Source: Myxococcaceae bacterium (GTDB lineage: Bacteria; Myxococcota; Myxococcia; Myxococcales; UBA5297). From it: a stretch of DNA of 64,000 bases. The translations under genes were made by a program, and so were the position numbers. The notes beneath the pieces are model-generated. The model saw only the letters and a program-made list of their open reading frames with translations, was not told the DNA's origin and did not search any database. Where the stretch lies: positions 5,420-69,419 of the forward strand of contig JAFVYB010000114.1 of assembly GCA_017500825.1 (NCBI GenBank). Reading direction: 5' to 3'. This document shows positions 5,950-64,000 of the stretch, piece by piece; positions within the stretch are counted from its first letter, which is position 1; the number at the start of each line of letters is the position of its first letter.

Positions 5950-6143
5950 CTCTTTTTCCACACTCGCTTTCGAAAAGGTGTTGCTCGGCATTGCCGCATT
6001 GTTGCTGGTTCGACGCGCAGGCGCTGCTGACTCAAAACAGCTCAATCGTCACAAAACGCCTCAACCAATCGCCGTCATTGACCTTCCACATATGGCCAAG
6101 CGCGCCACATAGGGAGCGAAGGGGCGCCGCGTCACAGAGTCAC

Positions 6144-7979: not shown

Positions 7980-8096
7980 TTTGATGACCTTTCCAGAAGA
8001 AAACTGAACAAACAAAGAAGGAGCCCAGACCGCTTACGCCTTCCACGCAAGCCTGTCTGGACTCCACTCTCATCCATGTTTTGTCGCTCTCGGCGA

Positions 8097-9533
8097 TCAG
8101 TCGAAGATGCTGTAGGCAACCTCGTCGCGCGCCTGCTTGTAACGCTGCTTCATGTCATCCAACAGGCGACGAATCCTCTCCGTGTCCGGATTGACGATGC
8201 GCGGCGTGACGAAGATCAAGAGCTCCTTCTTTGTCCCCTCGCTCGAACGGTTTTTGAAGAGCTCGCCCAAGATGGGGATATGGCCGAGCAACGGCGTCTT
8301 AGTGACACCCTTCTGCTCGTTGTGATGGAAGATGCCGCCCAGGACGATCGTCTCGCCATGGCGCACGGTGACAGTCGTGGAGACCTTGCGATTGATGGTG
8401 CCGGGCATGCCGTCCACGCTGACCGACATATCCATCTCGGAAGCTTCGGCCTTGATCTCCGTGCGGATATTGCCGTGACGATCGGCGGTCGGCGTCACTT
8501 CGAGGCTAATGCCATAGGGCTTGAACTCGACGGTGGCGGCATTAGCGGAAACGATCTGAACAGGGAATTCACCGCCCGAATTGAAGGTCGCCGTCTTACC
8601 GGAAGCGCAGACGAGCTTGGGCTGGGCCAGCATACGGCCATAGCCGTCGCTGAACTGGAACTGGAAGGCAAAGCCCGTCTCTGCGTCCCCAGAGAAGGAG
8701 ACATTGCCGTCCGCCGGATAGGAGCCAGGCAGGAACTGCTTGGAAATGGAGAGTGATCCGCTGAGCGAGCCGGTGATGTCGAGCGGCCAATTGATGCCAA
8801 TGACATCCGAATTGCTGCGACGGATTTCCACGAACTGGACTTCCGTGAGAATCATGCGCGCGATGCCGACGACCACGAGGTTTTCAACCTCTGACTCGCC
8901 GATGGCCTTGGTGATCTTCAGCGCCTTCTCCACATCCTCTTCGGATTCAGCCGAGCCTTCGAGGAAAATCTGAGTGCCGACGACTGTGGCCTGAACATTC
9001 TTGAGGCCTGCCCGCTGCAGCGCAGCATTCAGGTTGTTGGCGACAAGCTTTTTGGCGTTCGGAGCGTATTTCACGAAGCTCTGCACATTACCTGAATAAA
9101 TTTTGCAGATTTCATCCACGCGCTCGTAGTCGTCGGTCGTGTAGGCATAACCATCCAAATAGATGCGATCGCCAACCATGCGCACGGTAATGCCTTCGCG
9201 ATCGCCGAGGAGCCGTTTAATCTCCTCAATCAACTCATTGGGGTCTTTCTTGCGCACATTGACCATGAAGTTCAGGCGCGAACCATTCGACTTCCAAAGG
9301 AGCAGGGTCGTCCGGCCCTCGGTCTTGCCGACGATGAGGACCTGACTCGTTCCCAACACCTTGACGTCCGCGATCCCGGAATCACCGATGGCGATTCGGG
9401 CAATCCCCGGAACGTTGATAACCTTCTGCGTTCCCACACCAATCGCAACGGATTGCTCTTCCTGTGCGTAGGCTGTCCCTAACAACACAAAAACAAACGC
9501 AAAAATCATTGCGAAACGTATTTTGTTTGCCAT
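8097..9533 (-). CDS. cpaC: Tad-type outer-membrane secretin (CpaC/RcpA family)
   Basis: Signal peptide (MANKIRFAMIFAFVFVLLGTAYAQ). N-terminal pilus-formation domain (QKVINVPGIARIAIGDSGIADVKVLGTSQVLIVGKTEGRTTLLLW). C-terminal secretin signature (TPLLGHIPILGELFKNRSSEGTKKELLIFVTPRIV). Confidence 0.85.
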   Translation of the reverse strand: MANKIRFAMIFAFVFVLLGTAYAQEEQSVAIGVGTQKVINVPGIARIAIGDSGIADVKVLGTSQVLIVGKTEGRTTLLLWKSNGSRLNFMVNVRKKDPNELIEEIKRLLGDREGITVRMVGDRIYLDGYAYTTDDYERVDEICKIYSGNVQSFVKYAPNAKKLVANNLNAALQRAGLKNVQATVVGTQIFLEGSAESEEDVEKALKITKAIGESEVENLVVVGIARMILTEVQFVEIRRSNSDVIGINWPLDITGSLSGSLSISKQFLPGSYPADGNVSFSGDAETGFAFQFQFSDGYGRMLAQPKLVCASGKTATFNSGGEFPVQIVSANAATVEFKPYGISLEVTPTADRHGNIRTEIKAEASEMDMSVSVDGMPGTINRKVSTTVTVRHGETIVLGGIFHHNEQKGVTKTPLLGHIPILGELFKNRSSEGTKKELLIFVTPRIVNPDTERIRRLLDDMKQRYKQARDEVAYSIFD

Positions 9534-9636
9534 CGACTTTTCCTCTTCTGCATTGGATTTATCGGGTGAAACAACTCAAACCTGCCAACAACTCGACTTC
9601 AGACTTCTCCGGACTTCAAAAACATCGCCTGTGGCT

Positions 9637-10203
9637 TTAGAGCATCGACGCTGCGGCTGCCTGTTGATGCATCTGCCACCAAATCCCCCAGACGCTGCCC
9701 AACGCGATGGCAAAACCATAGGGAATTTTGGGAGTGCGATAGGTAATCTCCCGCGATGCCACGGGACGCATCTTCTGGACGGCTTTTTGTCCCATGCATT
9801 TAAAGGCATAAAAAAACTCACCACGCCAAAGAAGAACAACAATAGCGTGAACACCGCCGACAATCCCCGTCCCCACAAAACAAAAAATAATGGAGGGCAA
9901 ACCAACACCCGCGCCGACAGCGGCCATCAATTTGACATCGCCATCACCCATACCGCCCTTGCAGGCCATAAACCAAAAGACGAGGGCACCCACCACCATC
10001 CCCAAAAGACCGCTGAACAGCCCTACGTCGGAGAATGCCGTGCCCCAGCCGCCAAATATCAGACGAAGTAACAGACTAATGGCTATCGTCGGAAAGGTGA
10101 CGATATTTTTGATTTTTCTCGAATGAAAGTCCGTCACCACTGAAATAATCAGGGCGAGCGCCACAATTGAATACAAGATATTGATCAACTGTTGGGCGTT
10201 CAT
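9637..10203 (-). CDS. cpaA: Prepilin peptidase, A24 family (CpaA/TadV-like)
   Basis: ORF 9637..10266. Polytopic membrane protein carrying the two aspartate motifs (VVTDFHSRKIKN and GGMGDGDVKLMAAVG). Start placed at MNAQQLINILY (ATG complement at 10201-10203). The longer ORF would read through the C13 tract. Confidence 0.8.
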   Translation of the reverse strand: MNAQQLINILYSIVALALIISVVTDFHSRKIKNIVTFPTIAISLLLRLIFGGWGTAFSDVGLFSGLLGMVVGALVFWFMACKGGMGDGDVKLMAAVGAGVGLPSIIFCFVGTGIVGGVHAIVVLLWRGEFFYAFKCMGQKAVQKMRPVASREITYRTPKIPYGFAIALGSVWGIWWQMHQQAAAASML

Positions 10204-10230
10204 CTGTCGAGACTCTCGTTGGAAAAGGGA

Positions 10231-10243
10231 GGGGGGGGGGGGG
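10231..10243. repeat. G13 (C13 on the coding strand) homopolymer, 27 nt upstream of the likely cpaA start
   Basis: Read directly: ...ggaaaaggga GGGGGGGGGGGGG cagaggg... It lies in the 155-nt gap between the AMIN gene stop (10359) and the cpaA start (10203). Confidence 0.9.
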
Positions 10244-10358
10244 CAGAGGGCGGCGCTACAGAGCAAACTACAGAAGCTCTGTCAATATCGACTTACGCCT
10301 CTGCCAGAGCGTGTTTTTGAGAGGGAAAATCGCCCGGTAATGGCGAAAGGCACGCTTC

Positions 10359-11294
10359 TCAGCGTTCCACGTCGATCTGAAGTTCACGCGCGCGCTGTCT
10401 CACCTGGTAGCCGGCGGCTCTGTCGAGGTGCAGCTCCAACCGAACGTCGCCGTCGCGCTCGCCTGGCACCACCCGCTGGAGCGCTGTCCCAAAATAGCTC
10501 GTCTCCAGAGGATGACGGTTGTTGGCGCTGCCAAGCCGCGTCTTGTGGAGGGTGATGGTCACGACGCCAGGCGAGGTCTCACCCGCCGTATAGATGGCCT
10601 CCTGGGTGAGTCGGACAGTGACGCGGGCTGCCTCGGGCAAAAGCTTGAAACCGATGCGCTCGACAGTGGCGCGGGTGGGCGTCGGGTCTGATGGTGGCGC
10701 ATCGAGCGAACGCGGGCGCGCGGTTGTCGATGGAACACGCCGGGCCAGGCCTGTCTCGCCGCGAACAGAGGTCGCCTCTATCCTGTTCGGCATCCCCTCC
10801 CCTGCCCCCTCTCCTGCTGTCGCGGTCTTCGCCGCACGTTGCCGCGCCAGAGGATCGACCGACAACAAAGCGCCGCGCGATGACGGCCGGATGGCGATGT
10901 CCGCTCCCCTCACCTCCAGATCGACCTCGTGCTCAGCTTCGAACGAGATGGAGGCACGGACGATGGAGGTCTTTCCCGCTCCATGCGCCGTCAGCGTCAC
11001 CTGGCGCACCGGTCCTCTCTCAAAGCGCGTCTGGCGTTCCGCTGCCCCGATGACCGCGCCTTCGAAGTCCAGCAAGAGCCGCGGCGGGTTTTGCAACTCA
11101 ATGGTCGAGAAGTTGGGCGGCGCGCTCCCCTGGATGGTGATCGCGAAGCGTTGCGGCGACTCCTGAACGACCTCGACGCGCTCGATGTGGTTGAGGCGTG
11201 GCGCGCTCCAGGCTGTGGCGGCGAAAAAGGCCCAGATGGCGAGCGACAGACGCCAAATCGCGAACAGATGGCCGCGCCTCCCCTTTGTCCTCAC
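10359..11294 (-). CDS. Secreted protein with two AMIN-like domains
   Basis: Signal-like N-terminus (LFAIWRLSLAIWAFFAATAWSA). Two segments match the AMIN pattern: IERVEVVQESPQRFAITIQGSAPPNFSTIELQNPPRLLLDFEGA and VERIGFKLLPEAARVTVRLTQEAIYTAGETSPGVVTITLHKTRLG. High GC3. Confidence 0.65.
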   Translation of the reverse strand: MRTKGRRGHLFAIWRLSLAIWAFFAATAWSAPRLNHIERVEVVQESPQRFAITIQGSAPPNFSTIELQNPPRLLLDFEGAVIGAAERQTRFERGPVRQVTLTAHGAGKTSIVRASISFEAEHEVDLEVRGADIAIRPSSRGALLSVDPLARQRAAKTATAGEGAGEGMPNRIEATSVRGETGLARRVPSTTARPRSLDAPPSDPTPTRATVERIGFKLLPEAARVTVRLTQEAIYTAGETSPGVVTITLHKTRLGSANNRHPLETSYFGTALQRVVPGERDGDVRLELHLDRAAGYQVRQRARELQIDVER

Positions 11295-11478
11295 CGCTGA
11301 CTCCTCACCACGCGACAGCGCGCATCGCTGTCCTGATCCTTAAAAAATAAAATTCGGCGCAGGCGATTCACATCCCGGCACAGCCGCGCGCCACCAACTC
11401 GCCCCACAAAGCGATCCGAAACTGTTCGGGCCCTGCCCCGTGAGCGCGGGCGCCTCTTGCCCAGTGACGGCGCGACTT

Positions 11479-12885
11479 TCAAGCCATCCCACGCGGCCCA
11501 TGGCTCTCAAGCACAGCGCCGACGAGATAGAGCGAACCGGCGGCGAGCGCCCAGCCATCCGGCCCATCGAAAAGCGCCTCCCGCCTTGCCGCTTCGAGGG
11601 CCGCGCCGACCGTCTCATGACAGGTGAAGTCGACGCCCAGCTGGCGCGCGAGAGCAGCCAAATCACCGAGGCGCATGGCACGCGGGTTGTCGAGCGCCAC
11701 GAGGTGAACCGACGCGGCCTCGGCCAGGATCACCCGCGCCACAGACGCGACATCCTTGTCGGCCAGCGCGCTGAAGACGATCCGCGGCCTTGGTCCACGC
11801 GCTCGCGCCCGGCACATCGCGGCCAGGACACGCGCGCCATCCGGGTTGTGCGCGCCATCGACAATCGTCAGTGGACGCCTGTCGACGATCTGAAAGCGCC
11901 CGGGCCACTTCACCCGCTCAAGCCCATCCGCCACATGCCGCGCCTCGATCCTGGAGGAGAGTGAGAGGGCGGCGGCGATCGCCACTTCGGCGTTGTCCAG
12001 CTGGTGTTCGCCCGCGAGCGCGAGCTTGAGCGGTCCAATGCGCGGCGGCGCGGTCCGAGGCCCCTCAGAGCGCTGATTTTCGTCGCGCCCCGCCAGAATG
12101 CGCTGCTCAAAAAAGACCGGCGTCTCCCCATCCGACGCCCGCGCCCCGCCCACATCGCCGCGCGGCAAATTTTCCACCTGTCCAGGCGCCGTCTCAAGGA
12201 GCCCCCCCCCCTCCGGCGCCAACGCGAAGTCGCGGCCGGCAAAACTGCACGCGCACCTCTGTTCAGACGCTGTCCGCGCGATGACCTCAAGCGCCTCGGG
12301 CATCTGCCGCGCGATAAAGGCCCGCGTTCCCGGTCGCAGGATGGCCGCCTTCTCCGCCGCGATGGCCGCCAGCGTCGGCCCCAGTGTCGCCGTGTGATCG
12401 AGTCCGACGCGCGTGATGATCGCGACTTCCGGAACGACCGCGCTCGTCGCGTCGAGCCGCCCGCCAAGTCCGACCTCCAGCACGGCGATCTCCACCCCCC
12501 CGCGCGCGAAATGATCGATGGCCAGCGCTGTCAGCGCCTCGAAATATGTCGGCGTCTCACCGCTCTTCCGCATGGCCTCGCCAAGACGCGCCACGCCCGC
12601 GCTCAGTCCCGCCCGATCGATGTCAGCCCCGTCGACACGGATGCGCTCGCAAAGGTGGACGAGATGGGGCGAGGTGTAGAGGCCGACCCGGTGCCCGGCC
12701 GCCGAGAGAATCGCCGCCGCCGTGGCCGCCGCCGACCCCTTGCCGTTGGTGCCCGCGACCTGAAGCACGCGCAGCGCCGAGTGCGGATTGTCCAGCGCGC
12801 GCAACAGATGCCGCATCCGCGTCAGGCCCAGCGCCATCCCAAAAGGGTTGAGCGATTCGAAAAACGTTTCCGGCGAATTGTGCAT
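11479..12885 (-). CDS. folC: Bifunctional folylpolyglutamate synthase / dihydrofolate synthase
   Basis: Mur-ligase P-loop (VAGTNGKGS), then ...YTSPHLVHLCERIRVDG... and GLDHTATLG. Length of 468 aa fits. Confidence 0.9.
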   Translation of the reverse strand: MHNSPETFFESLNPFGMALGLTRMRHLLRALDNPHSALRVLQVAGTNGKGSAAATAAAILSAAGHRVGLYTSPHLVHLCERIRVDGADIDRAGLSAGVARLGEAMRKSGETPTYFEALTALAIDHFARGGVEIAVLEVGLGGRLDATSAVVPEVAIITRVGLDHTATLGPTLAAIAAEKAAILRPGTRAFIARQMPEALEVIARTASEQRCACSFAGRDFALAPEGGGLLETAPGQVENLPRGDVGGARASDGETPVFFEQRILAGRDENQRSEGPRTAPPRIGPLKLALAGEHQLDNAEVAIAAALSLSSRIEARHVADGLERVKWPGRFQIVDRRPLTIVDGAHNPDGARVLAAMCRARARGPRPRIVFSALADKDVASVARVILAEAASVHLVALDNPRAMRLGDLAALARQLGVDFTCHETVGAALEAARREALFDGPDGWALAAGSLYLVGAVLESHGPRGMA

Positions 12886-13175
12886 GGAACTCTCTCGCGC
12901 TGTTCACCCATATCCGACGCTCAAGACGCGCCTCGGGCCGACGGCGAACGGCGCGGCGCTCTAGCAAAAGCCCAGCCCACGGGAACGAGCCAAAACGCCG
13001 TTTTTTCGTCCTCATTATTAAGGATGGACGCGCGGCCAACGCCCTCCAGACCCCGAGCGCGCCGCAGGCGATCTCCGCCCCCTGGCCGGGTGTTGCGCCT
13101 CAAGAGGCATTGTTGCTAGGGAGGCCGCCCTTTTGCGCCGCCCAAGGCGCCGAGCCACCTTTCAAGGAACGCGAC

Positions 13176-13922
13176 ATGGTCCAAAAAACCCTCTTTTGCC
13201 CCAGCTGTTCGGAAATCCTCGATCCAAATAAAAACGAATGCCCGCGCTGCGGTGAATTTATTCAATTCGATCCCGATGAAATCATGATGCAGCTGGCGCT
13301 CAAGGCGCGGAAGAAATCCCTCATTCCCTGGGGGCTTATCTTCTTTTTCGCGATTTATTTCGCCAGCGCGTATTGCTTCGTCAAATACTATTATCGAACA
13401 ACCCCCGAATACAAAGCGGCCGTTCATTATTACAAAGGCGACATGATTCTCGGCGAAGACGATGGTAAATCGATCGACACCCCCATGCTTTTCGCCGCCA
13501 TGGAGGAATTTGTCCGCGGATCGCAGGAAACGCCCCTGGAGGATTACGGCTATCTGCGCATCGAGACGATTCAACGCCGCCTCAACGAGCGCAAAATCAA
13601 ACTCACGAGCGAGCAGCAGCGCGAAATCGACCATCTGGCGAGAATGCGGGCCGTGGCCAGAGAGAAGCGCAAGCCCGTGCTCCTCGTCGGCATTCGCGAC
13701 ACCTGGGACATCGACGCGCTGGAGGCCATGCCGCGCAAAATTTTTAATTACAGCGTCTTTATCGCCATGGGCCTGATGGCGGTTTGGATATTCCGCTCGT
13801 GGCGCATGCGGCGGCATTACGATCAAATGGCCACGCGCATGATTGAAGAGCGCCGCGTCGAGGCCATGGACGACGTGGAATACGCCAAATACAAAAAAGA
13901 GCAGCGGCGCAAACGGCGCTGA
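13176..13922 (+). CDS. Hypothetical zinc-ribbon membrane protein
   Basis: ORF 13110..13922. Start set at ATG 13176, preceded by AAGGAAC. CPSC...CPRC zinc ribbon at the N-terminus, two hydrophobic helices, basic C-terminus. Noticeably lower GC than its neighbours. Confidence 0.6.
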   Translation: MVQKTLFCPSCSEILDPNKNECPRCGEFIQFDPDEIMMQLALKARKKSLIPWGLIFFFAIYFASAYCFVKYYYRTTPEYKAAVHYYKGDMILGEDDGKSIDTPMLFAAMEEFVRGSQETPLEDYGYLRIETIQRRLNERKIKLTSEQQREIDHLARMRAVAREKRKPVLLVGIRDTWDIDALEAMPRKIFNYSVFIAMGLMAVWIFRSWRMRRHYDQMATRMIEERRVEAMDDVEYAKYKKEQRRKRR

Positions 13923-14062
13923 GTTCAAAGGCGACAAGCCAACAGAAAAATCGCCTCATCAAACACGCGCCAAACAAAATAATTTAAAATTTAAATCGGC
14001 GGGTAAAGCGTCCAATCGATAACTTTAAGAAGTTCAATCATTTCAACCGGCAAAATCCATGG

Positions 14063-14098
14063 GAGCGCGACATCCTTTGAAGATGCGCGCTCTTTTTT
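14063..14098 (+). terminator. Rho-independent terminator-like hairpin
   Basis: gagcgcgacat / atgcgcgctc stem (14063-14092) followed by T6 (14093-14098). It lies about 140 nt after the 13922 stop, in a convergent gap. Confidence 0.5.
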
Positions 14099-14115
14099 GA
14101 TCGTGAACGCGCGTT

Positions 14116-14364
14116 TCACAGGGCGCCGCGCGCGAAAAACGCGACCAGAGACAGGGCGATAAGTGCGATGATCGCGATGCCGACAACGCCGAGGCCCCGC
14201 TTGCCCGCGCCCTTCGAGGGCCTGGTGCCGGCGAGATCCTGAAAGCCGCCGCGCAGCGACGAGATCAGGCCCACCGAGTCGCCCGCCGACAGGTCGTCGC
14301 CCGAGGCTGACTGAAAGCGCTGTTCCGGGCGCTGTTTTTTGACGCGTTTTTTGGACTTGGGCAT
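14116..14364 (-). CDS. Small basic tail-anchored membrane protein (82 aa), hypothetical
   Basis: MPKSKKRVKKQRPEQ...GLGVVGIAIIALIALSLVAFFARGAL. A strong GAGGAG Shine-Dalgarno sits 6-7 nt upstream of the ATG (complement 14362-14364). The gene lies directly downstream of rarA. Confidence 0.5.
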   Translation of the reverse strand: MPKSKKRVKKQRPEQRFQSASGDDLSAGDSVGLISSLRGGFQDLAGTRPSKGAGKRGLGVVGIAIIALIALSLVAFFARGAL

Positions 14365-14465
14365 GTCGATTCTCCTCAATGGGCGGGAAATTCTTTTTGG
14401 GGCGAAATTTCCCGGATGAATAAAAAACAACGTCAACCAAAGCCGCGCGATGAATTGATTGGGCG

Positions 14466-15866
<1,401 letters not shown>

Positions 15867-15920
15867 GGCTCGCTCGTGGATGCGCGTCTTTCGCGGGGCG
15901 AACGACGGCGGACAAAGGTG

Positions 15921-16772
15921 TCAGCGCGTCTGGGAGGTCTCCGTCTGCAGGTAGACGTGCGCGCTCTCGTCGGCGGTCGGCAACAGGCCCATGCCGAGAT
16001 AGGTGAAGAGGATGAGCAAAAGACCTGTCGGCGGAAAGAAGGCGGCGGCGCGCGAATGGCGCCAGGCGGCGCGGCGCGAGAGACAGAGGTAGGCCGCGTA
16101 GAAGAGCCAGGTGGCCAGCGCCCAGTTTTCCTTGGGATCCCAGGTCCAGTAGTCGCCCCAGGCGCTCTTGGCCCACACCGAGCCGATGACGAGGGCGAAG
16201 CTCATCAGGACAAAGCCGAGGCGCAGTGTCTGGTCGGCCAGTGTCCAGAGGTCGCGCGAGGAGGGCGGCGGTCGGTGGCCAGCGCGCGTGCGCCACAGGT
16301 GGAGGATGGCGATGAGCGCGCTCAGGGCGAGGAAGGCGTAGCCAAAGAAGTAGAGGACGACGTGGGGGATGAACCAGACGCTGCGCAGCGCGGGCGGCAG
16401 GAGCGAAGGCGTCGCGTCAAATCGGGTCAGGGCGAAGGCGAGCGCGCTCAGGGCGGCGGCAGACATGCCCGTCGTCAGCGCCCGTGAGCGATAGAGGGCG
16501 GCGAAGGCGATCCCGAGCAGGCCCAGGCAGGCGCCGAGGAGGGTCATCGACTCGAAGAGCGAGCGGAAGGGCGGCTGGCCAAAGGCGATCCAGCGCTGGC
16601 CGATGGCGCCGAGGTTGACGAGGACAGCGGCGGCGAAGGTGGCGAACGATGCGCGGTCGAGGGCGCGGCGGCCGGTGACGAACGCGAGGCCAGAGGCGAC
16701 GAGCGACGCGAGATAGAGCAGGGCGCCGATGCCAAAGGGCGTCTGAAAGAGGTGGTGGACAAAGGAGGGCAT
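15921..16772 (-). CDS. Cytochrome c assembly protein (CcsA/CcmC-type haem-handling membrane protein)
   Basis: Polytopic protein with the tryptophan-rich motif (WAKSAWGDYWTWDPKENWALATW). Start set at MPSFVHH (ATG complement at 16770-16772). The longer ORF reads through a C9 tract. Confidence 0.75.
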   Translation of the reverse strand: MPSFVHHLFQTPFGIGALLYLASLVASGLAFVTGRRALDRASFATFAAAVLVNLGAIGQRWIAFGQPPFRSLFESMTLLGACLGLLGIAFAALYRSRALTTGMSAAALSALAFALTRFDATPSLLPPALRSVWFIPHVVLYFFGYAFLALSALIAILHLWRTRAGHRPPPSSRDLWTLADQTLRLGFVLMSFALVIGSVWAKSAWGDYWTWDPKENWALATWLFYAAYLCLSRRAAWRHSRAAAFFPPTGLLLILFTYLGMGLLPTADESAHVYLQTETSQTR

Positions 16773-55945: not shown

Positions 55946-56216
55946 CCTTTTGGGAGCCGTTTCGGCTAAGAGGCCGCGCCGCTCGGCGCCCCCCTGTCCA
56001 TCATCGAGGCGCCCTGGGCACGCCGCCCTCCTGTCAGGGCACGCGCCACAGCGCGCTCGACGCTTTGGGCGCGCGGGATGAGCACTTCGGGCCTGTTCGC
56101 GCGGGGGAATTCCTGCCGCCGCTTTTGTCCATGCCTGGCGCCCTTCCCTCCCCTTGTCAGTCTTTCCCTGGGGTCGGCCTTCGGGCCCGCCCACCTCTGC
56201 AGAAACGAGTCCCTCC

Positions 56217-59153
56217 ATGGCCGATACCGAGATGCCGCCTCCTTCCGACGACGCCGCCTCCGACGCGAAGCGCGCCGACGGTGCCCCTGCCACTGGCCTG
56301 CCAGTCAACGACACGCCCGATGGTCCTGGCGCCCCACCGCCCAGCGCCGGCTCTGACGCGCCGCCGCCGCGATCCATCATCCCGATCGCCATCGAAGACG
56401 AGATGCGGCGCTCCTACCTCGACTACTCGATGAGCGTGATCGTCGGCCGCGCCCTGCCCGACGTGCGCGATGGCCTCAAGCCGGTCCACAGGCGCGTCCT
56501 CTTCACGATGGACGAGCTGGGCAACCACTACAACAAGCCCTTCAAGAAGTCGGCGCGCACCGTCGGCGATGTCATGGGCAAGTATCACCCGCACGGCGAC
56601 CAGGCCATCTACGACACCCTGGTGCGCATGGCTCAGGACTTCTCGCTGCGCTACCTGCTCATCGATGGCCAGGGCAACTTCGGCTCGGTCGACGGCGATC
56701 CCCCGGCGGCGATGCGTTACACCGAGGCGCGCCTGACCCGCCTGTCCGAAGAGCTCCTCGCAGACCTCGACAAGGACACCGTCGATCTCGGGCCCAACTA
56801 CGACGAGTCGCTGACCGAGCCGATGGTCCTGCCGGCGCGCTTTCCCAACCTGCTCGTCAACGGCTCCGAGGGCATCGCCGTCGGCATGGCCACCAAAATC
56901 CCGCCGCACAACCTGGGCGAGGCCATCGACGCCACGATCCACCTCGTCGATCACCCGGAGGCCACGGTCGCCGACCTGATGCAGTTCATCCCCGGCCCCG
57001 ACTTCCCCACGGCGGGCTTCATCCACGGGCGGCGCGGCATCTACGACGCCTACACCACCGGTCGCGGCCACCTGAAAGTCCGCGCGCGCGTCGACATCGA
57101 GGTCGATCCCAAGACCGATCGCGAGACCATCGTTGTCACCGAGCTGCCCTATCAGGTGAACAAGGCGCGCCTCATCGAGAGCATCGCCCAGTTGCACAAG
57201 GACAAGGTCGTCGAGGGCATCACCGGACTGCGCGACGAATCCGACCGCCGCGGCATGCGCATCGCCATCGAGGTCTCGCGCAACGCCATGGCCCAGGTGG
57301 TGCTCAACAACCTCTTCGCCCACACCGACCTGCAGACGACCTACGGCGTGATCATGCTGGCGATCGACAACGGCCAGCCGCGCGTCCTCAACCTCAAGGA
57401 ACTGCTCGCGCGCTTCATCAGCCACCGCCGCGACGTGGTCACGCGCCGCACCCGCTTCGAGCTGAGAAAAGCCGAGGCCAGGCGCCACATCGTCGAGGGC
57501 CTGCTCGTCGCCCAGGACTTCATCGATCACGTCATCTCGCTCATCCGCGCCTCCAAAGATCCGGAAGAGGCCAGCTGGGGGCTGACGCGCATCTTCACCG
57601 ACGAGATCTACGAGCGCGATTCCTTCAAACACCTGCCGCGCGTCTCCCTCGACATGGCGCGCGAACGCATGGCCGCCCTCACCGCACGGCTCAACAGCGA
57701 CGAGCCCAAATGCGGCGCCCTCACCCACGCCTACAGCGACCGCGGCTTCTCCCCGGAACAGGCCAAAGCCATCCTTGAGATGCGCCTGCAGCGCCTGACC
57801 GGGCTGGAGCGCGAGGCCCTCATCGGCGAGCTCGTCGACCTCGTGCGCGCCATCGCCTGGTATCGCGAGATTCTCGACAACGAGAAGACGCTGCTCGGCG
57901 TGATCAAGGACGAACTGAGCGAAATCCGCGAAAAATACGCCGACGAGCGCCGCACCCAGATCGTCGACGAGGCGGGCGATCTCTCCATCGAGGACCTCAT
58001 CGCCGAAGAGGACATGGTCGTGACGCTCTCGCACGACGGCTACGTCAAGCGGAACCCGGTCAGCGACTACCGGGCGCAGCGCCGTGGCGGACGCGGCAAG
58101 ACAGGCGCCTCCACCAAGGAAGACGATTTCGTCGAGCAGGTCTTCGTCGCCTCGACCCACGCGCACCTGCTCATCTTCTCCACCAAGGGCCGCCTCTACT
58201 GGCTCAAAGTCCACGAAATCCCGGCCGCCGGTCGCACCTCGCGCGGCAAGGCCATCGTCAACATGGTGAAGTTCGACGAGGACGAAAAACTGGCCGCCGT
58301 CCTGCCCGTCAGCGCCTTCGAAGCCGATCGCTGCGTGGCCTTTGTGACCAAAAACGGCGTGGTCAAGCGCACCGCCCTCTCCCAGTTCTCGCGTCCCCGC
58401 GCCTCCGGCATCAACGCGCTCGGCATCGAGGACGGCGACGCGCTCAAGGCCGCCCTGCTCACCGACGGCACCAAAGATCCGTTGCTCTCGACGCGAACGG
58501 GCATGGCCATCCGCTTCCAGGAGACGGACGTGCGCGTCATGGGCCGCCAGGCCTTTGGCGTCAAAGGCATCGAGCTCGAAGCGGGCGACGCGGTCGTCGG
58601 CGCCGAGGTGGTCGAAGTCGGCCAGACCATCCTCACCATCACCGAGCGCGGCTTTGGCAAGCGCACCGACGAAGGGCTCTACCGGGCGCAGCACCGCGGC
58701 GGCAAAGGCCTCATCGACATCAAGACGACCGAGCGCAACGGCCAGGTCGCCGGCGTGCTCCAGGTCAAAGACACCGACGAGATCGTCATCATCACCAACC
58801 GCGGCATGCTCATCCGCACCCGCGTCAACGAGATCTCGACCATTGGCCGCAACACCCAGGGCGTCCGCCTGATCTCGCTGGGCGAGGGCGAAAAGGTCTC
58901 AGGCGTCGCCAAGCTGCCCGAGGATCAAACCGAAACCGACACGCCAACGCCCCTGGAGGCGACCAGCGCGGATGCATCCAGTGGTAATGCGAATGAATCA
59001 AGCGGCAATGCGCATGCATCCAGCGCCGACGCGGCCGAAACAAATTCAGACGCCAATGAAACAAATGCCGACGCAATCGAAACAGACGCCATGGCGAATG
59101 AAACCGCCACTGACGACGCCACCCCACCCCCCGACAATGAATCAACAGACTGA
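56217..59153 (+). CDS. gyrA: DNA gyrase subunit A
   Basis: [38 protein letters not shown], the active-site region ([10 protein letters not shown]), and C-terminal beta-pinwheel repeats. Start at ATG 56217 (MADTEM). Pro/Ala-rich N-terminal extension of about 60 aa and an acidic tail of about 75 aa. Confidence 0.95.
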
Positions 59154-59209
59154 GCAAGGAACGTTGGGAAATCAGACGGCATTCAACAATTTAAAGAAGG
59201 ACAATAAAA

Positions 59210-59936
59210 ATGTTCTACGAAAATATTTTAAACAAAAAACGAGGGGGGGGGTATCCTCAAGGTTATTCACGGCTATCCCCCAGAATATAACGCGGGTTCG
59301 GAAAATTATTCCAAAACGGTTTGCGACGAATTATCCAAGACAAACCGCGTCTCGGTCTTTACTCGCGAAGAAAATTTCTACGCCCCTGATTTTTCAATTC
59401 GGATTCGTCAGGACAATCCAAATCTGACGATTTATTATATCAATCATCCGCAGGGCAAGGACGGTTACCGCCACGCGCGGTTGGACGCGGTTTTTGCCGG
59501 GCTCGTGGATGAAATTCGCCCCGATGTCGCCTACATCGGGCACCTGAACCACCTCTCCACTGGCATTGTCGATGTATTGAGCGACAGAAAAATTCCCATT
59601 GTCTTTATGCTTCACGACTATTGGCTCATGTGTCCCCGGGGGCAATTCCTCATGCGGAGCATTGGGCGTGGGAATAATTTCATGCTCTGCCCGGGACAGA
59701 GTGATGAAAAATGCGCCCGTGACTGCTACGAGGTTTATTTTTCTGGCCGCGAAGACACAAGAACAGCGGATATGGCCACTTGGACGAATTGGATTCATCG
59801 CCGCATGGAGGAAACGCGAACAATGATTCAGAAGGTCAATCTGTTTATCGCTCCGTCCAATTATCTCCGGAAACGCTTTGTTCTGGATTTCAGGCGTTTT
59901 CCCGGGATAACGTCGAGTGATATATTGAACAAGTAA
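59210..59936 (+). pseudogene. Decayed GT4-family glycosyltransferase: N-terminal (GT4 N-domain) half only, frameshifted at a G9 tract
   Basis: ATG 59210 gives MFYENILNKKRGGG, then runs out of frame. The +1 frame from 59253 reads ILKVIHGYPPEYNAGSENYSKTVCDELSKTNRVSVFTREE...DVAYIGHLNHLS...IPIVFMLHDYWLMCPRGQF...LFIAPSNYLRKRF, which is typical of the N-terminal half of GT4 enzymes. It stops at 59934-59936 before any C-terminal Glycos_transf_1 domain. Confidence 0.7.
59243..59251 (+). repeat. G9 homopolymer at the frameshift point of the GT4 remnant
   Basis: ...aaaaaacga GGGGGGGGG tatcctcaagg... With G8 the ATG at 59210 would be in frame with the conserved ILKVIHGYPP block. Confidence 0.9.
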
Positions 59937-60008
59937 ACAATACAAAGCGCTACTCGCGGCTTACAAAGACGCGCGAGATCTGCAGTGCAGCAAAATGAGG
60001 AGTTGTGA

Positions 60009-62525
60009 ATGGATAAAAAACAAAAAATAGGCGTCATCATTGCGACGTCGATGGCAAGAAATGAAAGCCTTTTTTCATTATCATTAAATTCCGTTTTGAA
60101 CCAAACTGTAATGCCGGATTGCATCGTTATAGTTGACGACAACAATAATAGATCTACATCCGCAGAAATTGAAACCAGGATTAAACAAAATAATTTTAAA
60201 ATTTTACACTACACAAGAAACAAAAACACTAAGAATATGTCTGGAACCGGGGCATGGAATACAGGTATTGAATTTCTAAAGGATAAAATTGGCGAGGACG
60301 GTTATGCCGCATTTTTAGACGATGATGACAGTTGGGACCTGAATTACATTGAAAGCATTCGTCAACAAATACATGAAAATCCAAACACGGAAGCAGTATT
60401 TGCATTTTTGAAACGCTCAGATTGTCAGAATGTTTCAGAATTCAAGCTAACCGATCTGACGATTGAAAATTTTTTGATTGGAAATCCGGGCATTCAAGGC
60501 AGCAATATGTGTTTTAAGATTGGAAATCTGTTGAAAATAAATGGATTTGACGAACATCTCTCCAGCTGTTCCGACAGAGACTTAATGATAAGATTTTTAG
60601 AGGCTTTCGGAAATAAGGGCATCTTCATCATAGAAAAAAAATGTGTAAATCATTTTACGGGAAACGGAACAGTGACGTCTAATTTTGAAAAGAAGAAAAA
60701 TGGATTGGACTATTTTTTCAAAAAACACATCAAATCGTTTAATCTTCAAACACTTCAAAAATCACTGAGCCGCGCAAAAAAACTTTTCAACTATCCTCAT
60801 GATAAAAAGATTAACTCTCTCTTCAGAAAACAAACAACAGTTTTAATTACCGGCGTCTGCGGCTTTGTCGGTTCGCATGTCGCACGGGAGTTATCTAAAT
60901 GCGGATATTTTGTAATCGGAATTGACAATTTAGCGACGGGCTCCTTGGTGAATATTGAGGATTTTTCTCAAAACGATAATTTTCAATTTATCAATTTATC
61001 TATAAACAACGAGGGCGAGTTGAGAAGATTGTTCGAAGTCCATCCCATTGATTACGTGTTTCATCTTGCAGCCCTGCCTAGAATAAAATACTCTTTTGAT
61101 TATCCGAATGAATCTTACAATGCAAACGTTATTGGAACTAAAATCGTCGGAAAGATTGCCGCAGACTCTAATGTGAAATTATTTGTTTTTGCTTCATCTT
61201 CATCGGTTTACGGCGAGTGTGAAAATGTTAAAATGAGAGAAAGTGACGTTCTCCATCCGATGTCGCCATACGCAGAACAAAAGGCGAAAGCTGAAGAACT
61301 TCTGCAGGAAATTTTTAAGGCGTCCAACAGCTGTCTATTAATCCTTAGATTTTTTAATGTTTATGGGTTTTCATTTCAGCCGGTCGACCAATACTCGACA
61401 CTGATCGGAAAATGGGTTTCAGATATTAAAAATGGAAATTTAATAACGATCAATGGAACAGGAAATCAGTCGAGGGACTTCACATATATCGATGACGTCG
61501 TGACCGCCGCGCTCAATTGCCTAGAGGTTTATGATGCAAAAAAACAAATCAATATTATAAACATTGGAACAGGGATATCAACCAGAATAAATACAGTGGC
61601 TTCTTTTTTTGAGCAGATATTTGAGCAGAAAATTAAAAAGATAATTAAATCTCTGAATTATCAGGAGCCGCTATTTACCTGCGCCGACAATTCAAAGGCG
61701 AAGGAGCTTTTGAATTGGGCGCCTCAAGTGCCGTTAGAGGCTGGTTTAAGACTATATGTAAAAACTATAATCACTAAAGAACAACCCATTGCAATCGGCG
61801 TGGCGATGCACAACAACAGAAAAACAATTCGCAGATGTCTTGATTCTATCTTGCGCCAAAAAAAAGTAAACCGCCGTCTTAAAATCATTCTTGGAAACGA
61901 CAATTCATCTGATGACTGGCAAAAAGAAATCTCCGACTTCTTGTCAGACAAAAGGATCGATATTTTACCATTAAATAATAACAATATAGTTCAAACACGA
62001 AATGCGATAAATGAATTTATCGCACAAAAATATCCAGGTGCCGCTCTGATTGGACGTCTGGATGCTGATGATGAATATGCCGATGATTATGTATTGTCGA
62101 AAATTGAAGAGATCTTGGAATTACACGATCCAGACGTGATATTGGCAGGAAATTATTTGCGTCAGGACGGGGCGTTGCTTGAACGGAAAAATTTGGCATA
62201 TAAGCAATTTTCTGATCAAAATTATATTTTATTTCGATTGAAGCAGATGGCCAACAGTATTCCTGAAGGAGAGCTGCCGTCATGCAATTTGTTTGTGAAA
62301 CCCAATGTACTTCGACCCTATCCGGATGTAAAAAGCGGAGAAGATCATGAACTGGTGGCACATTATCTTATGAATCAGAGGAAATATCATATTTTTTTCG
62401 CGGAAGATATTTTGCTGACGATTTATGAGTTGGGAGGAAGCGTTACAGCTAAAAATAAACAGTCGGAGAATTACATCAGCTGCCGAAGAGAATTATATCA
62501 AAAAGCCTTGGAGGATTTGCTATGA
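60009..62525 (+). CDS. Tri-domain fusion: GT2 glycosyltransferase, NAD-dependent sugar epimerase/dehydratase (extended SDR), second GT2 glycosyltransferase
   Basis: 838 aa. The first GT2 spans aa 6-225 (IGVIIATSMARNESLFSLSLNSVLNQT, IVIVDDNNN, FLDDDDSWD). The SDR spans aa 277-587 (VLITGVCGFVGSHVA Rossmann GxxGxxG, ASSSSVYG, SPYAEQK YxxxK). The second GT2 spans aa 592-810 (IAIGVAMHNNRKTIRRCLDSILRQ, ILGNDNSSDD, RLDADDEY). GAGGAG Shine-Dalgarno 8 nt upstream. About 33% GC. Confidence 0.85.
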   Translation: MDKKQKIGVIIATSMARNESLFSLSLNSVLNQTVMPDCIVIVDDNNNRSTSAEIETRIKQNNFKILHYTRNKNTKNMSGTGAWNTGIEFLKDKIGEDGYAAFLDDDDSWDLNYIESIRQQIHENPNTEAVFAFLKRSDCQNVSEFKLTDLTIENFLIGNPGIQGSNMCFKIGNLLKINGFDEHLSSCSDRDLMIRFLEAFGNKGIFIIEKKCVNHFTGNGTVTSNFEKKKNGLDYFFKKHIKSFNLQTLQKSLSRAKKLFNYPHDKKINSLFRKQTTVLITGVCGFVGSHVARELSKCGYFVIGIDNLATGSLVNIEDFSQNDNFQFINLSINNEGELRRLFEVHPIDYVFHLAALPRIKYSFDYPNESYNANVIGTKIVGKIAADSNVKLFVFASSSSVYGECENVKMRESDVLHPMSPYAEQKAKAEELLQEIFKASNSCLLILRFFNVYGFSFQPVDQYSTLIGKWVSDIKNGNLITINGTGNQSRDFTYIDDVVTAALNCLEVYDAKKQINIINIGTGISTRINTVASFFEQIFEQKIKKIIKSLNYQEPLFTCADNSKAKELLNWAPQVPLEAGLRLYVKTIITKEQPIAIGVAMHNNRKTIRRCLDSILRQKKVNRRLKIILGNDNSSDDWQKEISDFLSDKRIDILPLNNNNIVQTRNAINEFIAQKYPGAALIGRLDADDEYADDYVLSKIEEILELHDPDVILAGNYLRQDGALLERKNLAYKQFSDQNYILFRLKQMANSIPEGELPSCNLFVKPNVLRPYPDVKSGEDHELVAHYLMNQRKYHIFFAEDILLTIYELGGSVTAKNKQSENYISCRRELYQKALEDLL

Positions 62526-64000
62526 ACAACGATGAAAGAAAGCAAAAGGCATTGGAAATCCTTACCGATATGGGATTAAAAAATCTAGAGTACTTGGGAC
62601 AGGGATGTGAAGGCATCGTTTTTCACGATGGTGTCTCTGTTTACAAAGTGCTCGTTCCATTTTATTTTGGGAAAAACAAAAACGAAACATTGCGACGTTT
62701 GTCCTACTTTCGAAATATTTCAGAGTGTCAAAACATATACAGACTTGAAGAAATTTGTGAACACAGCGGATTCATCATTGAAAAATATCCCTATGAACGA
62801 TCAATCCCCTGCGAAAGTATTACTGAGAGTGAAGCGATAGAATTTCTCACTGCGTGCTGGCAGGAAAAATTGATCGTTAAAGATTGTAAATTAAAGAACT
62901 TTGTTCGTGTAAACGGAAAGGTGAAGCTCGTAGATCTGGATGCCTGTGGATACAATGATAATTTGTTTCTTAATATGTGCATAAGATCGTTTTTGTATTC
63001 TATTTTTTATAATAAAATTAATTTCGAAGCATTTCAAAAACTTCAACGGAGCGCGATAAATAATTTCGATTTACCGGAACTCGAGGGAGCACGCGAATTT
63101 GTGAATAAAGTTTTTGCAAATATAATTTTTGAAGAATCAAAATCTGTTATACAAGGGTTTAAAATCCGCGAAGATGTCTATGACAACAACATATACCTTG
63201 CCGGAAATCTGCCGAATTTTGAAAATATTTTTTATGCTGGGATTAAGGAAAATAAATTTTTGAAAGATATAAAAATTTCAGATGTAATTATCAACGAGAA
63301 CTTATATTTTGAGCCACAAAAAGTCGTCGTTCACTTTGATGAATTAAAGCCGCTTAAAGAGAAAGTAACGCTTTTAATAAAAACATGTGCACAGGACGAA
63401 TTTACTGTTGAAGCCAATGTCAAACACATCGTCAGACAATTGTCTTCGCCCAATCCATTTTCTGAAATAGTGGTTTTAATTGATTCGAAAAAAAGTGACT
63501 TTCTCAGAGAATTTAATTCTCGCGGAACTTTGAATGGTATTATCGAACGAGTTCAGAAGCTTCAAGAAGCGGGGATCATTGATCGATTTGTTGTTTATGA
63601 TGATTCAAAGACAGAGGAAATAAATTTACGCTGGTTTAATTTGCCGTCGAAGTATGCGCACACGACCAAAAACATTCCTGTAAGTTCTCAGCTGTATGCA
63701 TTTGAGCAATGTTCTGGCGACTACATTTTACAAGCTGATTGCGATGTTCTGATTGGAAGAAAGGATTATAACCATTCTTTTTTAACGGATATGATTGCAC
63801 AGCTGAAACAGAATGAACGAGTTATATCAGTCGGGTTCAATATTTATAACAGGGAGTCAAAAGAATATTTCGGTTTTGACAATGGAAGTTTTGTCCCTGA
63901 AGTACGTCTAGGTTTATTTGACAAAAAACGCTTTTTCTCCTTGAAGCCCTTTCCAAACGAACTTGATTCAGACGGTAAATTAAAACTATCCTGGTACCGT
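62522..64000 (+). CDS. Fusion of a minimal protein-kinase-like (PKL) domain and a GT-A-type glycosyltransferase-like domain; 3' end runs off the window
   Basis: Not in the ORF track (no stop in the window). My translation of 493 codons contains no stop: MNNDERKQKALEILTDMGLKNLEYLGQGCEGIVFHDGVSVYKV...LIVKDCKLKNFVRVNGKVKLVDLDACG... (GxGxxG loop, VYK lysine, DxKxxN catalytic loop, DLD), then ...VTLLIKTCAQDEF...VVLIDSKKS...GDYILQADCDVLIG (GT-A DxD-like). Its start overlaps the upstream stop (ATGA at 62522-62525). Confidence 0.75.
   Translation, partial: MNNDERKQKALEILTDMGLKNLEYLGQGCEGIVFHDGVSVYKVLVPFYFGKNKNETLRRLSYFRNISECQNIYRLEEICEHSGFIIEKYPYERSIPCESITESEAIEFLTACWQEKLIVKDCKLKNFVRVNGKVKLVDLDACGYNDNLFLNMCIRSFLYSIFYNKINFEAFQKLQRSAINNFDLPELEGAREFVNKVFANIIFEESKSVIQGFKIREDVYDNNIYLAGNLPNFENIFYAGIKENKFLKDIKISDVIINENLYFEPQKVVVHFDELKPLKEKVTLLIKTCAQDEFTVEANVKHIVRQLSSPNPFSEIVVLIDSKKSDFLREFNSRGTLNGIIERVQKLQEAGIIDRFVVYDDSKTEEINLRWFNLPSKYAHTTKNIPVSSQLYAFEQCSGDYILQADCDVLIGRKDYNHSFLTDMIAQLKQNERVISVGFNIYNRESKEYFGFDNGSFVPEVRLGLFDKKRFFSLKPFPNELDSDGKLKLSWYR

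Follow-up and report, generated by a model that had tools for sequence, protein, structure and literature searches.

What would a bacterium do with a polypeptide in which a nucleotide-sugar epimerase sits between two glycosyltransferases? The question is raised by an open reading frame (ORF) at positions 60009..62525, on the plus strand, of a 64,000-nucleotide stretch of DNA from a Myxococcaceae bacterium (GenBank assembly GCA_017500825.1, contig JAFVYB010000114.1), referred to here as the window. The original prediction, made from the letters alone, described a single 838-amino-acid (aa) chain, with two glycosyltransferase family 2 (GT2) domains enclosing an epimerase of the short-chain dehydrogenase/reductase (SDR) superfamily, and proposed that it makes a donor sugar and polymerizes it into an alternating glycan. 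We found that the fusion is real and that it is the first gene of a strictly conserved two-gene cassette. At a probability of about 0.55, we favor the reading that the two encoded proteins would form a cytoplasmic glycan assembly line with on-board donor epimerization.

The ORF is initiated by an ATG, has zero internal stops, and is preceded by an AGGAG ribosome-binding (Shine-Dalgarno) site (59998..60002, plus strand), which was read from the sequence 6 nucleotides 5' of the ATG at 60009. Since the region has a guanine-plus-cytosine (GC) content of 36%, at which stop codons are frequent, an ORF of 838 codons is far beyond chance. Five independent metagenome assemblies each have a contig coding for exactly this protein, ruling out a fusion created by sequencing error, and among 5.8 billion proteins searched, full-length relatives (43 to 60% identical) with the same three-part layout formed about 25 clusters; hidden stop codons separating three genes were therefore rejected as an explanation. 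The layout recurs in metagenomic clusters and in Bacteroidales and Opitutales metagenome-assembled genomes (MAGs). The structure prediction that had been suggested was run with AlphaFold2 on a 92-sequence alignment and yielded a compact model with three domains, a mean predicted local distance difference test score (pLDDT) of 94.5, and a predicted template modeling score (pTM) of 0.87. On the ORF, the Pfam matches, the five assemblies, and this model, the single three-domain polypeptide had been correctly delimited. A single-protein search of GTDB genomes with the 838-aa protein gave zero matches, but an alignment-based search did find relatives. In literature searches, no paper was found on the GT2-SDR-GT2 architecture or on the two-gene cassette. 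The architecture is not unique, in that it recurs in at least 25 clusters, but as in the original prediction, which knew of no characterized example, none was found here, and all names given in the sources are generic.

Both halves flanking the epimerase are, by their motifs, GT2 domains of the GT-A fold, each with a DxD motif and downstream acidic residues, and transferase activity is predicted for both. The N-terminal domain with its helical tail (residues 6 to 262; 60024..60794, plus strand) was delimited from Pfam and NCBIfam matches, invariant columns, and secondary structure, and the C-terminal domain (residues 594 to 838; 61788..62522, plus strand) from the Pfam match, invariant columns, and profile matches. 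Pfam Glycos_transf_2 (PF00535) covered two stretches, one N-terminal and one at residues 596 to 737, with 98.3 bits (cutoff 23.3) and a whole-protein E value of 6e-28, while NCBIfam gave TuaG and PglI-type matches on residues 3 to 133 and a PRK10073 match on residues 592 to 690. Motif invariance was judged in the 92-sequence alignment for the GT2 halves and in 25 sequences for the SDR. Invariant in the N-terminal half were D104 to D107 (DDDD, the DxD motif) and D189/R190/D191; invariant in the C-terminal half were D685/D687/D688 (DADD, the DxD motif) and E778/D779/H780. Every catalytic motif named in the original prediction, those of the SDR included, thus proved intact.

Against the PDB, the profiles of the GT2 halves matched generic GT2 enzymes: the N-terminal profile matched the N-terminal half of PmHS2 (Pasteurella multocida heparosan synthase 2; E value, 5e-8), and the C-terminal profile matched 6p61 (8e-16), the A2 domain of K4CP (9e-11), TarP (1e-10), and, weakly, the S-glycosyltransferase SunS (8e-5). 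For structural comparison, the dual-GT2 body was represented by the AlphaFold2 model of the closest SDR-less relative (pLDDT, 91.7). Its best Foldseek matches were K4CP (E value, 2e-20, with both domains aligned), PmHS2 (2e-15), and human LARGE1 (1e-12), followed by the single-domain GT2 enzymes WrtF, 6p61, RmlT, TarS, and TarP. The comparison with dual-GT2 polymerases drawn in the original prediction is the best structural analogy available. Identity to the known dual-GT-A polymerases in these alignments was 11 to 17%, and the profile matches to K4CP and PmHS2 cover one domain each and are no better than those to single-domain 6p61 and TarP. Moreover, since K4CP, PmHS2, and LARGE1 are almost the only two-GT-A chains in the PDB, their top rank is owed partly to architecture. 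The likeness to polymerases is one of architecture, not of orthology.

The middle of the protein (residues 277 to 591; 60837..61781, plus strand) is an extended-SDR domain that, as modeled, is structurally a UDP (uridine diphosphate)-hexose 4-epimerase, with the corresponding activity predicted; its limits follow from the Pfam, PDB, and Foldseek matches and from its clean insertion. Pfam Epimerase (PF01370) matched residues 278 to 520 (E value, 1e-53) and GDP_Man_Dehyd residues 279 to 581, and the NCBIfam matches on this part were of the GalE, TviC, and dehydratase types. By phmmer against the PDB, the domain matched Thermotoga maritima GalE (4zrm, 3e-44), WbgU and WbpP (1e-38), and the Bacillus cereus UDP-glucuronic acid (GlcA) 4-epimerase (4e-38), aligning over its full length with UDP-hexose 4-epimerases at 28 to 34% identity. 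Foldseek gave template modeling (TM) scores of 0.91 to 0.93 to the T. maritima and Mycobacterium tuberculosis GalE structures, followed by WbpP, WbgU, MoeE5, and BcUGAepi, and of 0.85 to 0.93 over the whole set of 4-epimerases. The top 24 matches were all UDP-sugar-active SDRs, 23 of them deposited as 4-epimerases (the exception, at rank 19, was Pal [6bwl]); the first reductase ranked 25th and the first dehydratase 34th. Invariant residues comprised the GxxGxxG motif (G282/G285/G288), the SSSS stretch (S396 to S399), Y421, and K425, and the NAD-binding Asp306 was conserved as well. The catalytic strand reads SSSSVYG, not TDEVYG or STSEVYG; 4,6-dehydratases carry Asp-Glu, and UDP-xylose synthases carry Glu, after the catalytic Ser/Thr, and SSSSVYG has neither. 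What had been described as an intact NAD-dependent epimerase/dehydratase can be narrowed to a predicted 4-epimerase of the GalE type. The domain cannot carry the name GalE by NCBI's rule, however, since it falls below the NCBIfam equivalog cutoff for GalE (TIGR01179; 172 versus 262 bits); the TviC cutoff was likewise missed (132 versus 760 bits). T557 occupies the so-called gatekeeper position, aligned with a small Ser in WbgU and T. maritima GalE, which suggests an open sugar pocket; work on GalE Y299, human GALE C307, and WbpP S306 is said to have established that a small gatekeeper lets the pocket tolerate N-acetylated sugars. By both phmmer and Foldseek, epimerases acting on glucose (Glc), N-acetylglucosamine (GlcNAc), and GlcA derivatives matched the domain with similar scores.

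The gene does not stand alone. When seven domain pieces were searched by tblastn against 81 loci (66 species-representative genomes plus metagenome contigs), a partner gene encoding 1060 to 1090 aa was found directly 3' of the dual-GT2 gene in every locus with downstream DNA, and the Pfam-annotated contexts agree with this constant pairing. In the window, the first 492 codons of the partner are present (62522..64000, plus strand; identified from tblastn, motifs, and the overlap described next) before the window ends. An ATGA overlap (ctATGAac at 62522) joins the stop codon of the first gene to the start of the partner, and through it the partner is predicted to be translationally coupled to the 838-aa gene. 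L001, another assembly with the same DNA (like L002 and L003; L numbers are locus labels throughout), encodes the full-length partner of 1066 aa.

From its motifs and PDB profile matches, the partner begins with a protein-kinase-like domain (first ~215 residues, ~62522-63166, plus strand) that has a Gly-rich loop, a VYKV lysine, an xxKxxN loop, and an (L/I)xD(L/Y/M) motif; in the PDB, a profile built from 31 sequences had no matches other than eukaryotic-type protein kinases, which were marginal (TTK; E value, 0.009) and had the motifs aligned. It is followed by a GT2-like "mid" domain (residues 278 to 560, from ~63353, plus strand, with only its start in the window) that carries a DCD motif and matches PF00535 at 24.9 bits (cutoff 23.3). 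A second GT2 domain (residues 570 to 724) and a radical S-adenosylmethionine (radical-SAM) core (~827 to 945, with CNLKCFGC) lie past the window end and were seen in L001. By sequence, comparison of the partner with the PDB returned only insignificant radical-SAM matches (7wzv, E value of 0.02; BlsE, 0.7), and a homologue search with its first 492 residues returned mostly fragments with uninformative names.

That the parts serve one process is indicated by how freely they fuse and separate, which is classical (Rosetta-stone) evidence. In two loci, all seven domains (GT2, SDR, GT2, kinase-like, GT2-like, GT2, and radical-SAM) lie in one ORF (L009, 9989-15625, 1879 aa; L010, 237-6047, 1937 aa), followed in L010 by a second SDR, a UDP-glucose 6-dehydrogenase, and a glycosyltransferase family 4 (GT4) gene. 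Eight loci have the two GT2 domains fused to the partner (about 1580 to 1650 aa), and many others encode the GT2 halves in separate ORFs.

The cassette occurs in Bacteroidota (Bacteroidales, Flavobacteriia, and Chitinophagia), Campylobacterota (Campylobacter), Spirochaetota (Treponema), Verrucomicrobiota (Opitutales), Myxococcota (Cystobacter and others), Parabeggiatoa, one Lachnospiraceae MAG, and Thermoplasmata archaea. A HMMER search of 1.84 billion representative proteins with the first 492 residues of the partner gave 352 matches (123 at an E value of ≤1e-30), among them proteins of 1700 to 1960 aa that combine GT2 with SAM-methyltransferase domains and a single protein bearing a histidine phosphatase domain. 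The family is rare, uncharacterized, and horizontally mobile. Zero relatives were found in the IMG/VR and INPHARED viral collections, and a phage or virus origin was rejected on that ground; a plasmid collection gave two distant matches, the stronger of which, the only one inspected, is a copy on a Salinivibrio chromid.

That copy (L165; Salinivibrio kushneri NZ_CP114591.1, 354091-359564) is a distant, rearranged cassette that encodes glycosyltransferases of 273 and 1020 aa on one strand and a 256-aa hypothetical protein plus a stand-alone radical-SAM protein on the other; it adjoins IS110 and ISAs1 transposases and lies on a 607-kb mobilizable replicon. In methanogens, minimal relatives have the mid GT2-like and radical-SAM domains as adjacent genes or fused (563 aa). 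Two such loci (L162, 8001-13687; L164, 2158-7764) also contain a 265-aa weakly GT2-like gene, a radical-SAM/SPASM gene, and a UDP-sugar-dehydrogenase-GT2 fusion (525 aa), with two small ORFs of 48 to 59 aa directly upstream.

Within this cassette, the epimerase is, on comparison of the sequences, an optional plug-in accessory. In SDR-less relatives the GT2 halves are linked by 5 to 8 residues, and the SDR sits exactly there, with no added linker. A neighbor-joining tree placed the embedded SDRs in one clade, with the free-standing SDR of an archaeal cassette as sister. Since L081, the closest relative of the window's cassette (62 to 63% identical in the GT2 halves and 69 to 76% in the partner), nevertheless lacks the SDR, a single insertion followed by losses or recombination is suggested. 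Other lineages carry other enzymes: in Campylobacter and Treponema, a separate UDP-glucuronate decarboxylase gene lies 3' of the partner (E value of 8e-112 to human UXS1), L008 and L010 have a second, dehydratase-like SDR besides the embedded one, and some relatives have a C-terminal methyltransferase on the dual-GT2 protein. We ruled out the embedded SDR as a relocated version of the downstream one, since the Campylobacter and Treponema decarboxylase is only 27 to 32% identical to it, L008 and L010 have an SDR of each kind, and the embedded SDRs cluster as a separate clade. On the simplest reading, the plug-in enzymes supply or modify donors and the cassettes differ in the sugars that they use; as the enzyme carried varies by lineage, so, probably, does the composition of the glycan. 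The insert may also serve as a scaffold, given that the pTM, a measure of the interdomain geometry here, was 0.87 with the SDR and 0.56 in the SDR-less relative, and it may fix the relative orientation of the two transferase domains in the modeled protein.

The preferred reading combines these observations as follows. Up to four transferase domains on two soluble proteins would add sugars to one acceptor, and the kinase-like and radical-SAM domains would tailor the acceptor or the product. The embedded epimerase would convert an abundant UDP-sugar (UDP-Glc, UDP-GlcNAc, or UDP-GlcA) to its C4 epimer, the donor for a neighboring transferase domain. With three intact domains, an SDR resembling 4-epimerases, and a GT2 body resembling polymerases, a role in which the donor is made beside the transferase is reasonable. 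The original prediction had missed the context that shapes the rest of the reading, namely, the obligatory partner, the modular donor enzymes, the lack of export genes, and the QueC, transporter, and defense neighbors.

The neighborhoods argue against an ordinary polysaccharide locus. In the annotated contexts (L001, L002, L072 to L081, and L165), no lipid-priming, flippase, polymerase, or ABC-exporter genes lie by the cassette, and KpsMT, Wzm/Wzt, Wzx/Wzy, and phosphoglycosyl-transferase genes are likewise absent. Defense genes were found instead beside several cassettes, as judged from Pfam contexts and PADLOC (PADLOC-DB 2.0) scores: two DUF262/GmrSD-type genes and a Fic/RhuM gene (L072), a PDC-M26A-like AAA gene with a PDDEXK partner and a transposase (L073 and L074), a type I restriction system (L075), an HNH endonuclease (L035, 308 bits), an Orf5/HEC-06-type gene (L039), and an HsdS-like gene (L062). 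Such frequent placement in defense islands points tentatively to a part played in conflicts with phages or competitors. A known antiphage system was rejected as an identity for the cassette, since PADLOC-DB 2.0 gave no match for the 838-aa protein and, for the partner, only a weak pVip match (37.6 bits) on part of the radical-SAM core.

Two further neighbors bear on the acceptor. In 18 loci, a gene for QueC (211 aa), an enzyme of 7-deazaguanine synthesis, abuts the cassette, directly after the partner in 16 and just upstream in 2 (the Lutibacter loci L020 and L026). In the loci checked, its start overlaps the partner stop (L035, 13787-14428; L039, 7033-7668; L062, 14859-15497), and it scores 158 to 168 bits with TIGR00364 (cutoff 150.3) and 90 bits with the PADLOC QueC model; these cassettes belong to Flavobacteriia, Chitinophagia, and Bacteroidia, and all lack the SDR. 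In eight other loci (seven distinct ones, L079 and L080 having the same sequence), a queuosine-precursor transporter gene (Vut_1/YhhQ; TIGR00697, 145 bits, cutoff 51) lies directly upstream (L079, 9304-9957; L011, 9421-10005; L013; L025; L027; L028; L030; and L080). These loci are from Treponema and some Bacteroidales, and the cassettes of L011 and L013 carry an embedded SDR. In T. pedis, a UDP-sugar dehydrogenase fragment precedes the transporter gene. That two unrelated families of one pathway should adjoin different cassette lineages is unlikely to be a coincidence. Because the gene neighborhoods in relatives point there most strongly, a 7-deazaguanine compound (of the preQ0, preQ1, or queuine type), or a nucleic acid carrying one, is the leading, though unproven, candidate for the acceptor. 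When the loci were tested for the preQ0 core (FolE, QueD, QueE, and QueC), only QueC (18 relatives) or the transporter (8 loci) was present.

A more specific version, which we regard as tentative at best, is that the cassette attaches a variable oligosaccharide to a 7-deazaguanine base and serves as a mobile conflict or defense module. The base could be free (preQ0, preQ1, or queuine) or could be present as queuosine or 7-deazaguanine in tRNA or DNA; its tailoring would fall to the radical-SAM and kinase-like domains, donors would come from plug-in enzymes such as the embedded epimerase, and the product might act as an antiviral nucleoside analogue or as a nucleic acid shielded from nucleases.

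Several observations weigh against the assembly-line reading and its proposed acceptor. The choice of 7-deazaguanine is, as we drew it, a guess by association, and the window's own island contains neither QueC nor the queuosine-precursor transporter. Furthermore, since the QueC score is barely above the cutoff, the enzyme may act on another carboxylate, such as a uronic acid, a class of sugar evidently involved in these cassettes. None of the QueE models matches the radical-SAM domain, whose matches to MoaA, twitch, and viperin models are weak (~30 to 42 bits), and the catalytic-loop Asp of the kinase-like domain is replaced in about one-third of the sequences. The defense neighbors were seen in several loci, and the Campylobacter cassette lies between ilvD and housekeeping genes. 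Finally, all members of the cassette family bear generic names only, and true polymerases head the list of structures matching the dual-GT2 body.

This last point leads to the nearest rival, a self-sufficient, glycosaminoglycan-like copolymerase that would epimerize one UDP-sugar and polymerize an alternating disaccharide for a capsule or exopolysaccharide. The Foldseek ranking and the profile matches to K4CP and PmHS2 speak for it, as does the set of enzymes in relatives (4-epimerase, UDP-Glc dehydrogenase, and UDP-xylose synthase), which make donors typical of such polymers, and the pairing of the polymerase KfoC with the epimerase KfoA in K4 chondroitin synthesis offers a precedent. We nevertheless consider it unlikely: the identities are low and the top rank partly reflects architecture, priming and export genes are missing from the annotated contexts, the cassette moves among organisms with very different envelopes, including Thermoplasmata, and neither the constant coupling to a kinase-like/radical-SAM partner nor the QueC and transporter neighbors would be explained. 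In a second rival reading, the target would be a peptide or cytoplasmic protein, glycosylated as in the maturation of glycocins or of ribosomally synthesized and posttranslationally modified peptides (RiPPs), with the radical-SAM domain acting on the peptide. The SunS match of the C-terminal GT2 profile, the twitch/SPASM peptide maturases among the radical-SAM matches (20 to 34 bits), and the radical-SAM/SPASM gene and two small ORFs adjoining the methanogen minimal relatives are all consistent with this idea. However, the radical-SAM matches are all weak, and a tblastx comparison of the 1.2-kb flanks of 27 cassettes revealed no conserved small ORF, protease, or exporter; the conserved flanks encode QueC, the Vut_1 transporter, and SDRs instead, making peptide glycosylation quite improbable.

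It might also be asked whether the cassette does anything in this host, for it could be a passenger on fresh foreign DNA, poorly expressed or nonfunctional, and the fusion an accident of gene order. The cassette is indeed a recent low-GC import into a Myxococcota-like genome. The GC content of the window is ~67% up to gyrA (56154..59153) and 36% from ~60000 on, and the closest matches of the host LigA (DNA ligase) are Myxococcales MAGs (64 to 68%), whereas the cassette relatives are mostly low-GC Bacteroidota. Moreover, a truncated, frameshifted GT4 gene adjoins the cassette, and the closest relative of the cassette (L081) has no SDR. On the other hand, both ORFs are intact in five assemblies, a good AGGAG site precedes the start, the SDR motifs are invariant across the embedded-SDR clade, the domain arrangement is confidently predicted to be fixed where that of the SDR-less relative is not, and the cassette is less divergent than the host flanks (against L001, 12 mismatches over 4 kb, compared with ~1.2% in the flanks). 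A passenger without function therefore appears highly improbable, and we retain the assembly line as the preferred reading.

The island itself, delimited by composition and by comparison with L001 and L002, was inserted after gyrA; its left part, with a 36% GC core, occupies 59160..64000 of the window (~7 kb for the island), and its right edge lies past the window at ~L001 16264-16400. The L001 copy occupies ~9000-16400, with high-GC T2SSE and CAP-domain genes after it. L001 and L002 agree over 7785 bp, their islands being 99.9% identical across 7.8 kb, before they part: L001 runs into the T2SSE/CAP genes from 16264 onward and L002 into high-GC thioredoxin/DUF4175 genes from 7786 onward, a difference that could reflect a rearrangement, two genomic sites, or a misjoin. 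A chimeric assembly at the GC jump was rejected, since high-GC DNA is present on both sides in L001 and L002 and on the left in L003. At the island edges, no target-site duplication, repeats, integrase, tRNA, or Rfam element was found.

The truncated GT4 gene (59210..59936, plus strand; Pfam Glyco_transf_4 in the L001 copy) is of intermediate GC content and encodes only the N-terminal GT-B half. Its 5' end contains a poly-G tract (59241-59251; ~9231-9243 in L001 and ~400 in L003) with a length of 13, 11, or 7 nucleotides, depending on the assembly (G13 in L001 and L002, GAG9 in the window, and GAG5 in L003), and the ATG at 59210 does not share a reading frame with the GT4 domain in the window. 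The length variation could be slipped-strand phase variation or assembly noise. Elsewhere in the window, the most divergent stretch relative to L001, with many indels, is the low-complexity C-terminal tail of GyrA (58976-59121; Ala/Asp/Asn/Glu/Ser/Thr-rich repeats), the rest of gyrA being ~99% identical. A second acquired segment may lie at 4001-10000, where the GC content drops to 52 to 56% (versus 62 to 70% in most of the remaining 2-kb windows as far as 58 kb).

In summary, the 838-aa protein joins parts of known kinds, GT2 transferases and a GalE-type epimerase, within an uncharacterized cassette. The fusion is a natural example of how an enzyme that modifies nucleotide sugars can be inserted cleanly into the linker that joins two glycosyltransferase domains, which makes it a test case for donor supply and channeling in glycan synthesis and a possible design template for glycoengineering. 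The cassette as a whole joins four GT2 domains, kinase-like and radical-SAM domains, varied sugar-nucleotide enzymes, and recurrent QueC, transporter, and defense links, and identification of its acceptor might uncover a novel type of glycoconjugate or an unrecognized connection of 7-deazaguanine metabolism with glycosylation.

Among known systems, the attachment of sugars to 7-deazaguanines is represented by huimycin and dapiramicin, in which glycosyltransferases attach a sugar to a preQ0-derived base; their genes form actinomycete biosynthetic gene clusters with a full FolE/QueD/QueE/QueC core and a PF13439 (Glyco_transf_4) transferase (PMC7439116; bioRxiv 10.64898/2026.04.15.718813). A survey of 7-deazapurine clusters contains no description of the present cassette (bioRxiv 10.64898/2026.04.15.718813). 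The cassette differs from both in that its transferases are GT2 enzymes and that only QueC or the transporter accompanies it, in some lineages and not in the window.

Conceptually, the cassette resembles multienzyme glycan machines such as Haemophilus influenzae type b Bcs3, Escherichia coli O9a WbdA/WbdD, and chlorovirus PBCV-1 A064R. These combine several transferase domains with tailoring domains (phosphatase, kinase, or methyltransferase) on one or two polypeptides and act on lipid-linked or protein acceptors in capsule, O-antigen, and viral capsid pathways; likewise, relatives of the partner carry methyltransferase or histidine-phosphatase domains. None of the three is known to have an SDR epimerase or radical-SAM domain.

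The closest structural counterpart is K4CP/KfoC (PDB 2z86/2z87), in which a single soluble chain likewise contains a tandem pair of GT-A/GT2 domains, both bearing a DxD motif. In K4 chondroitin synthesis, this polymerase is served by a GalE-type UDP-GlcNAc 4-epimerase, KfoA, which supplies one donor and is encoded by a separate gene, and KfoC lies in a group 2 capsule locus with export genes. Here, identity to K4CP is 15 to 17%, the relative domain orientation is different (root mean square deviation of about 17 Å), the epimerase forms part of the chain, export genes are missing from the neighborhood, and the protein has an obligatory radical-SAM/kinase-like partner. PmHS2 (8vh7) and LARGE1 (7ui6) are also bifunctional dual-GT-A enzymes; unlike the present protein, to which they are 11 to 16% identical, they are proven polymerases, and neither has an embedded SDR or a radical-SAM partner. 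Both use UDP-GlcA, and LARGE1 uses UDP-xylose as well, and makers of such donors (UDP-xylose synthase and UDP-Glc dehydrogenase) are carried by relatives of the cassette. As for the epimerase domain, it shares full-length alignment, the GxxGxxG motif, and the Ser/Tyr/Lys triad with T. maritima GalE (4zrm), WbpP (1sb8), WbgU (3ru9), and the B. cereus UDP-GlcA 4-epimerase (UGAepi; 6zl6). GalE, WbpP, WbgU, and UGAepi are free-standing, dimeric UDP-hexose 4-epimerases, whereas here the corresponding domain is spliced between two transferase domains.

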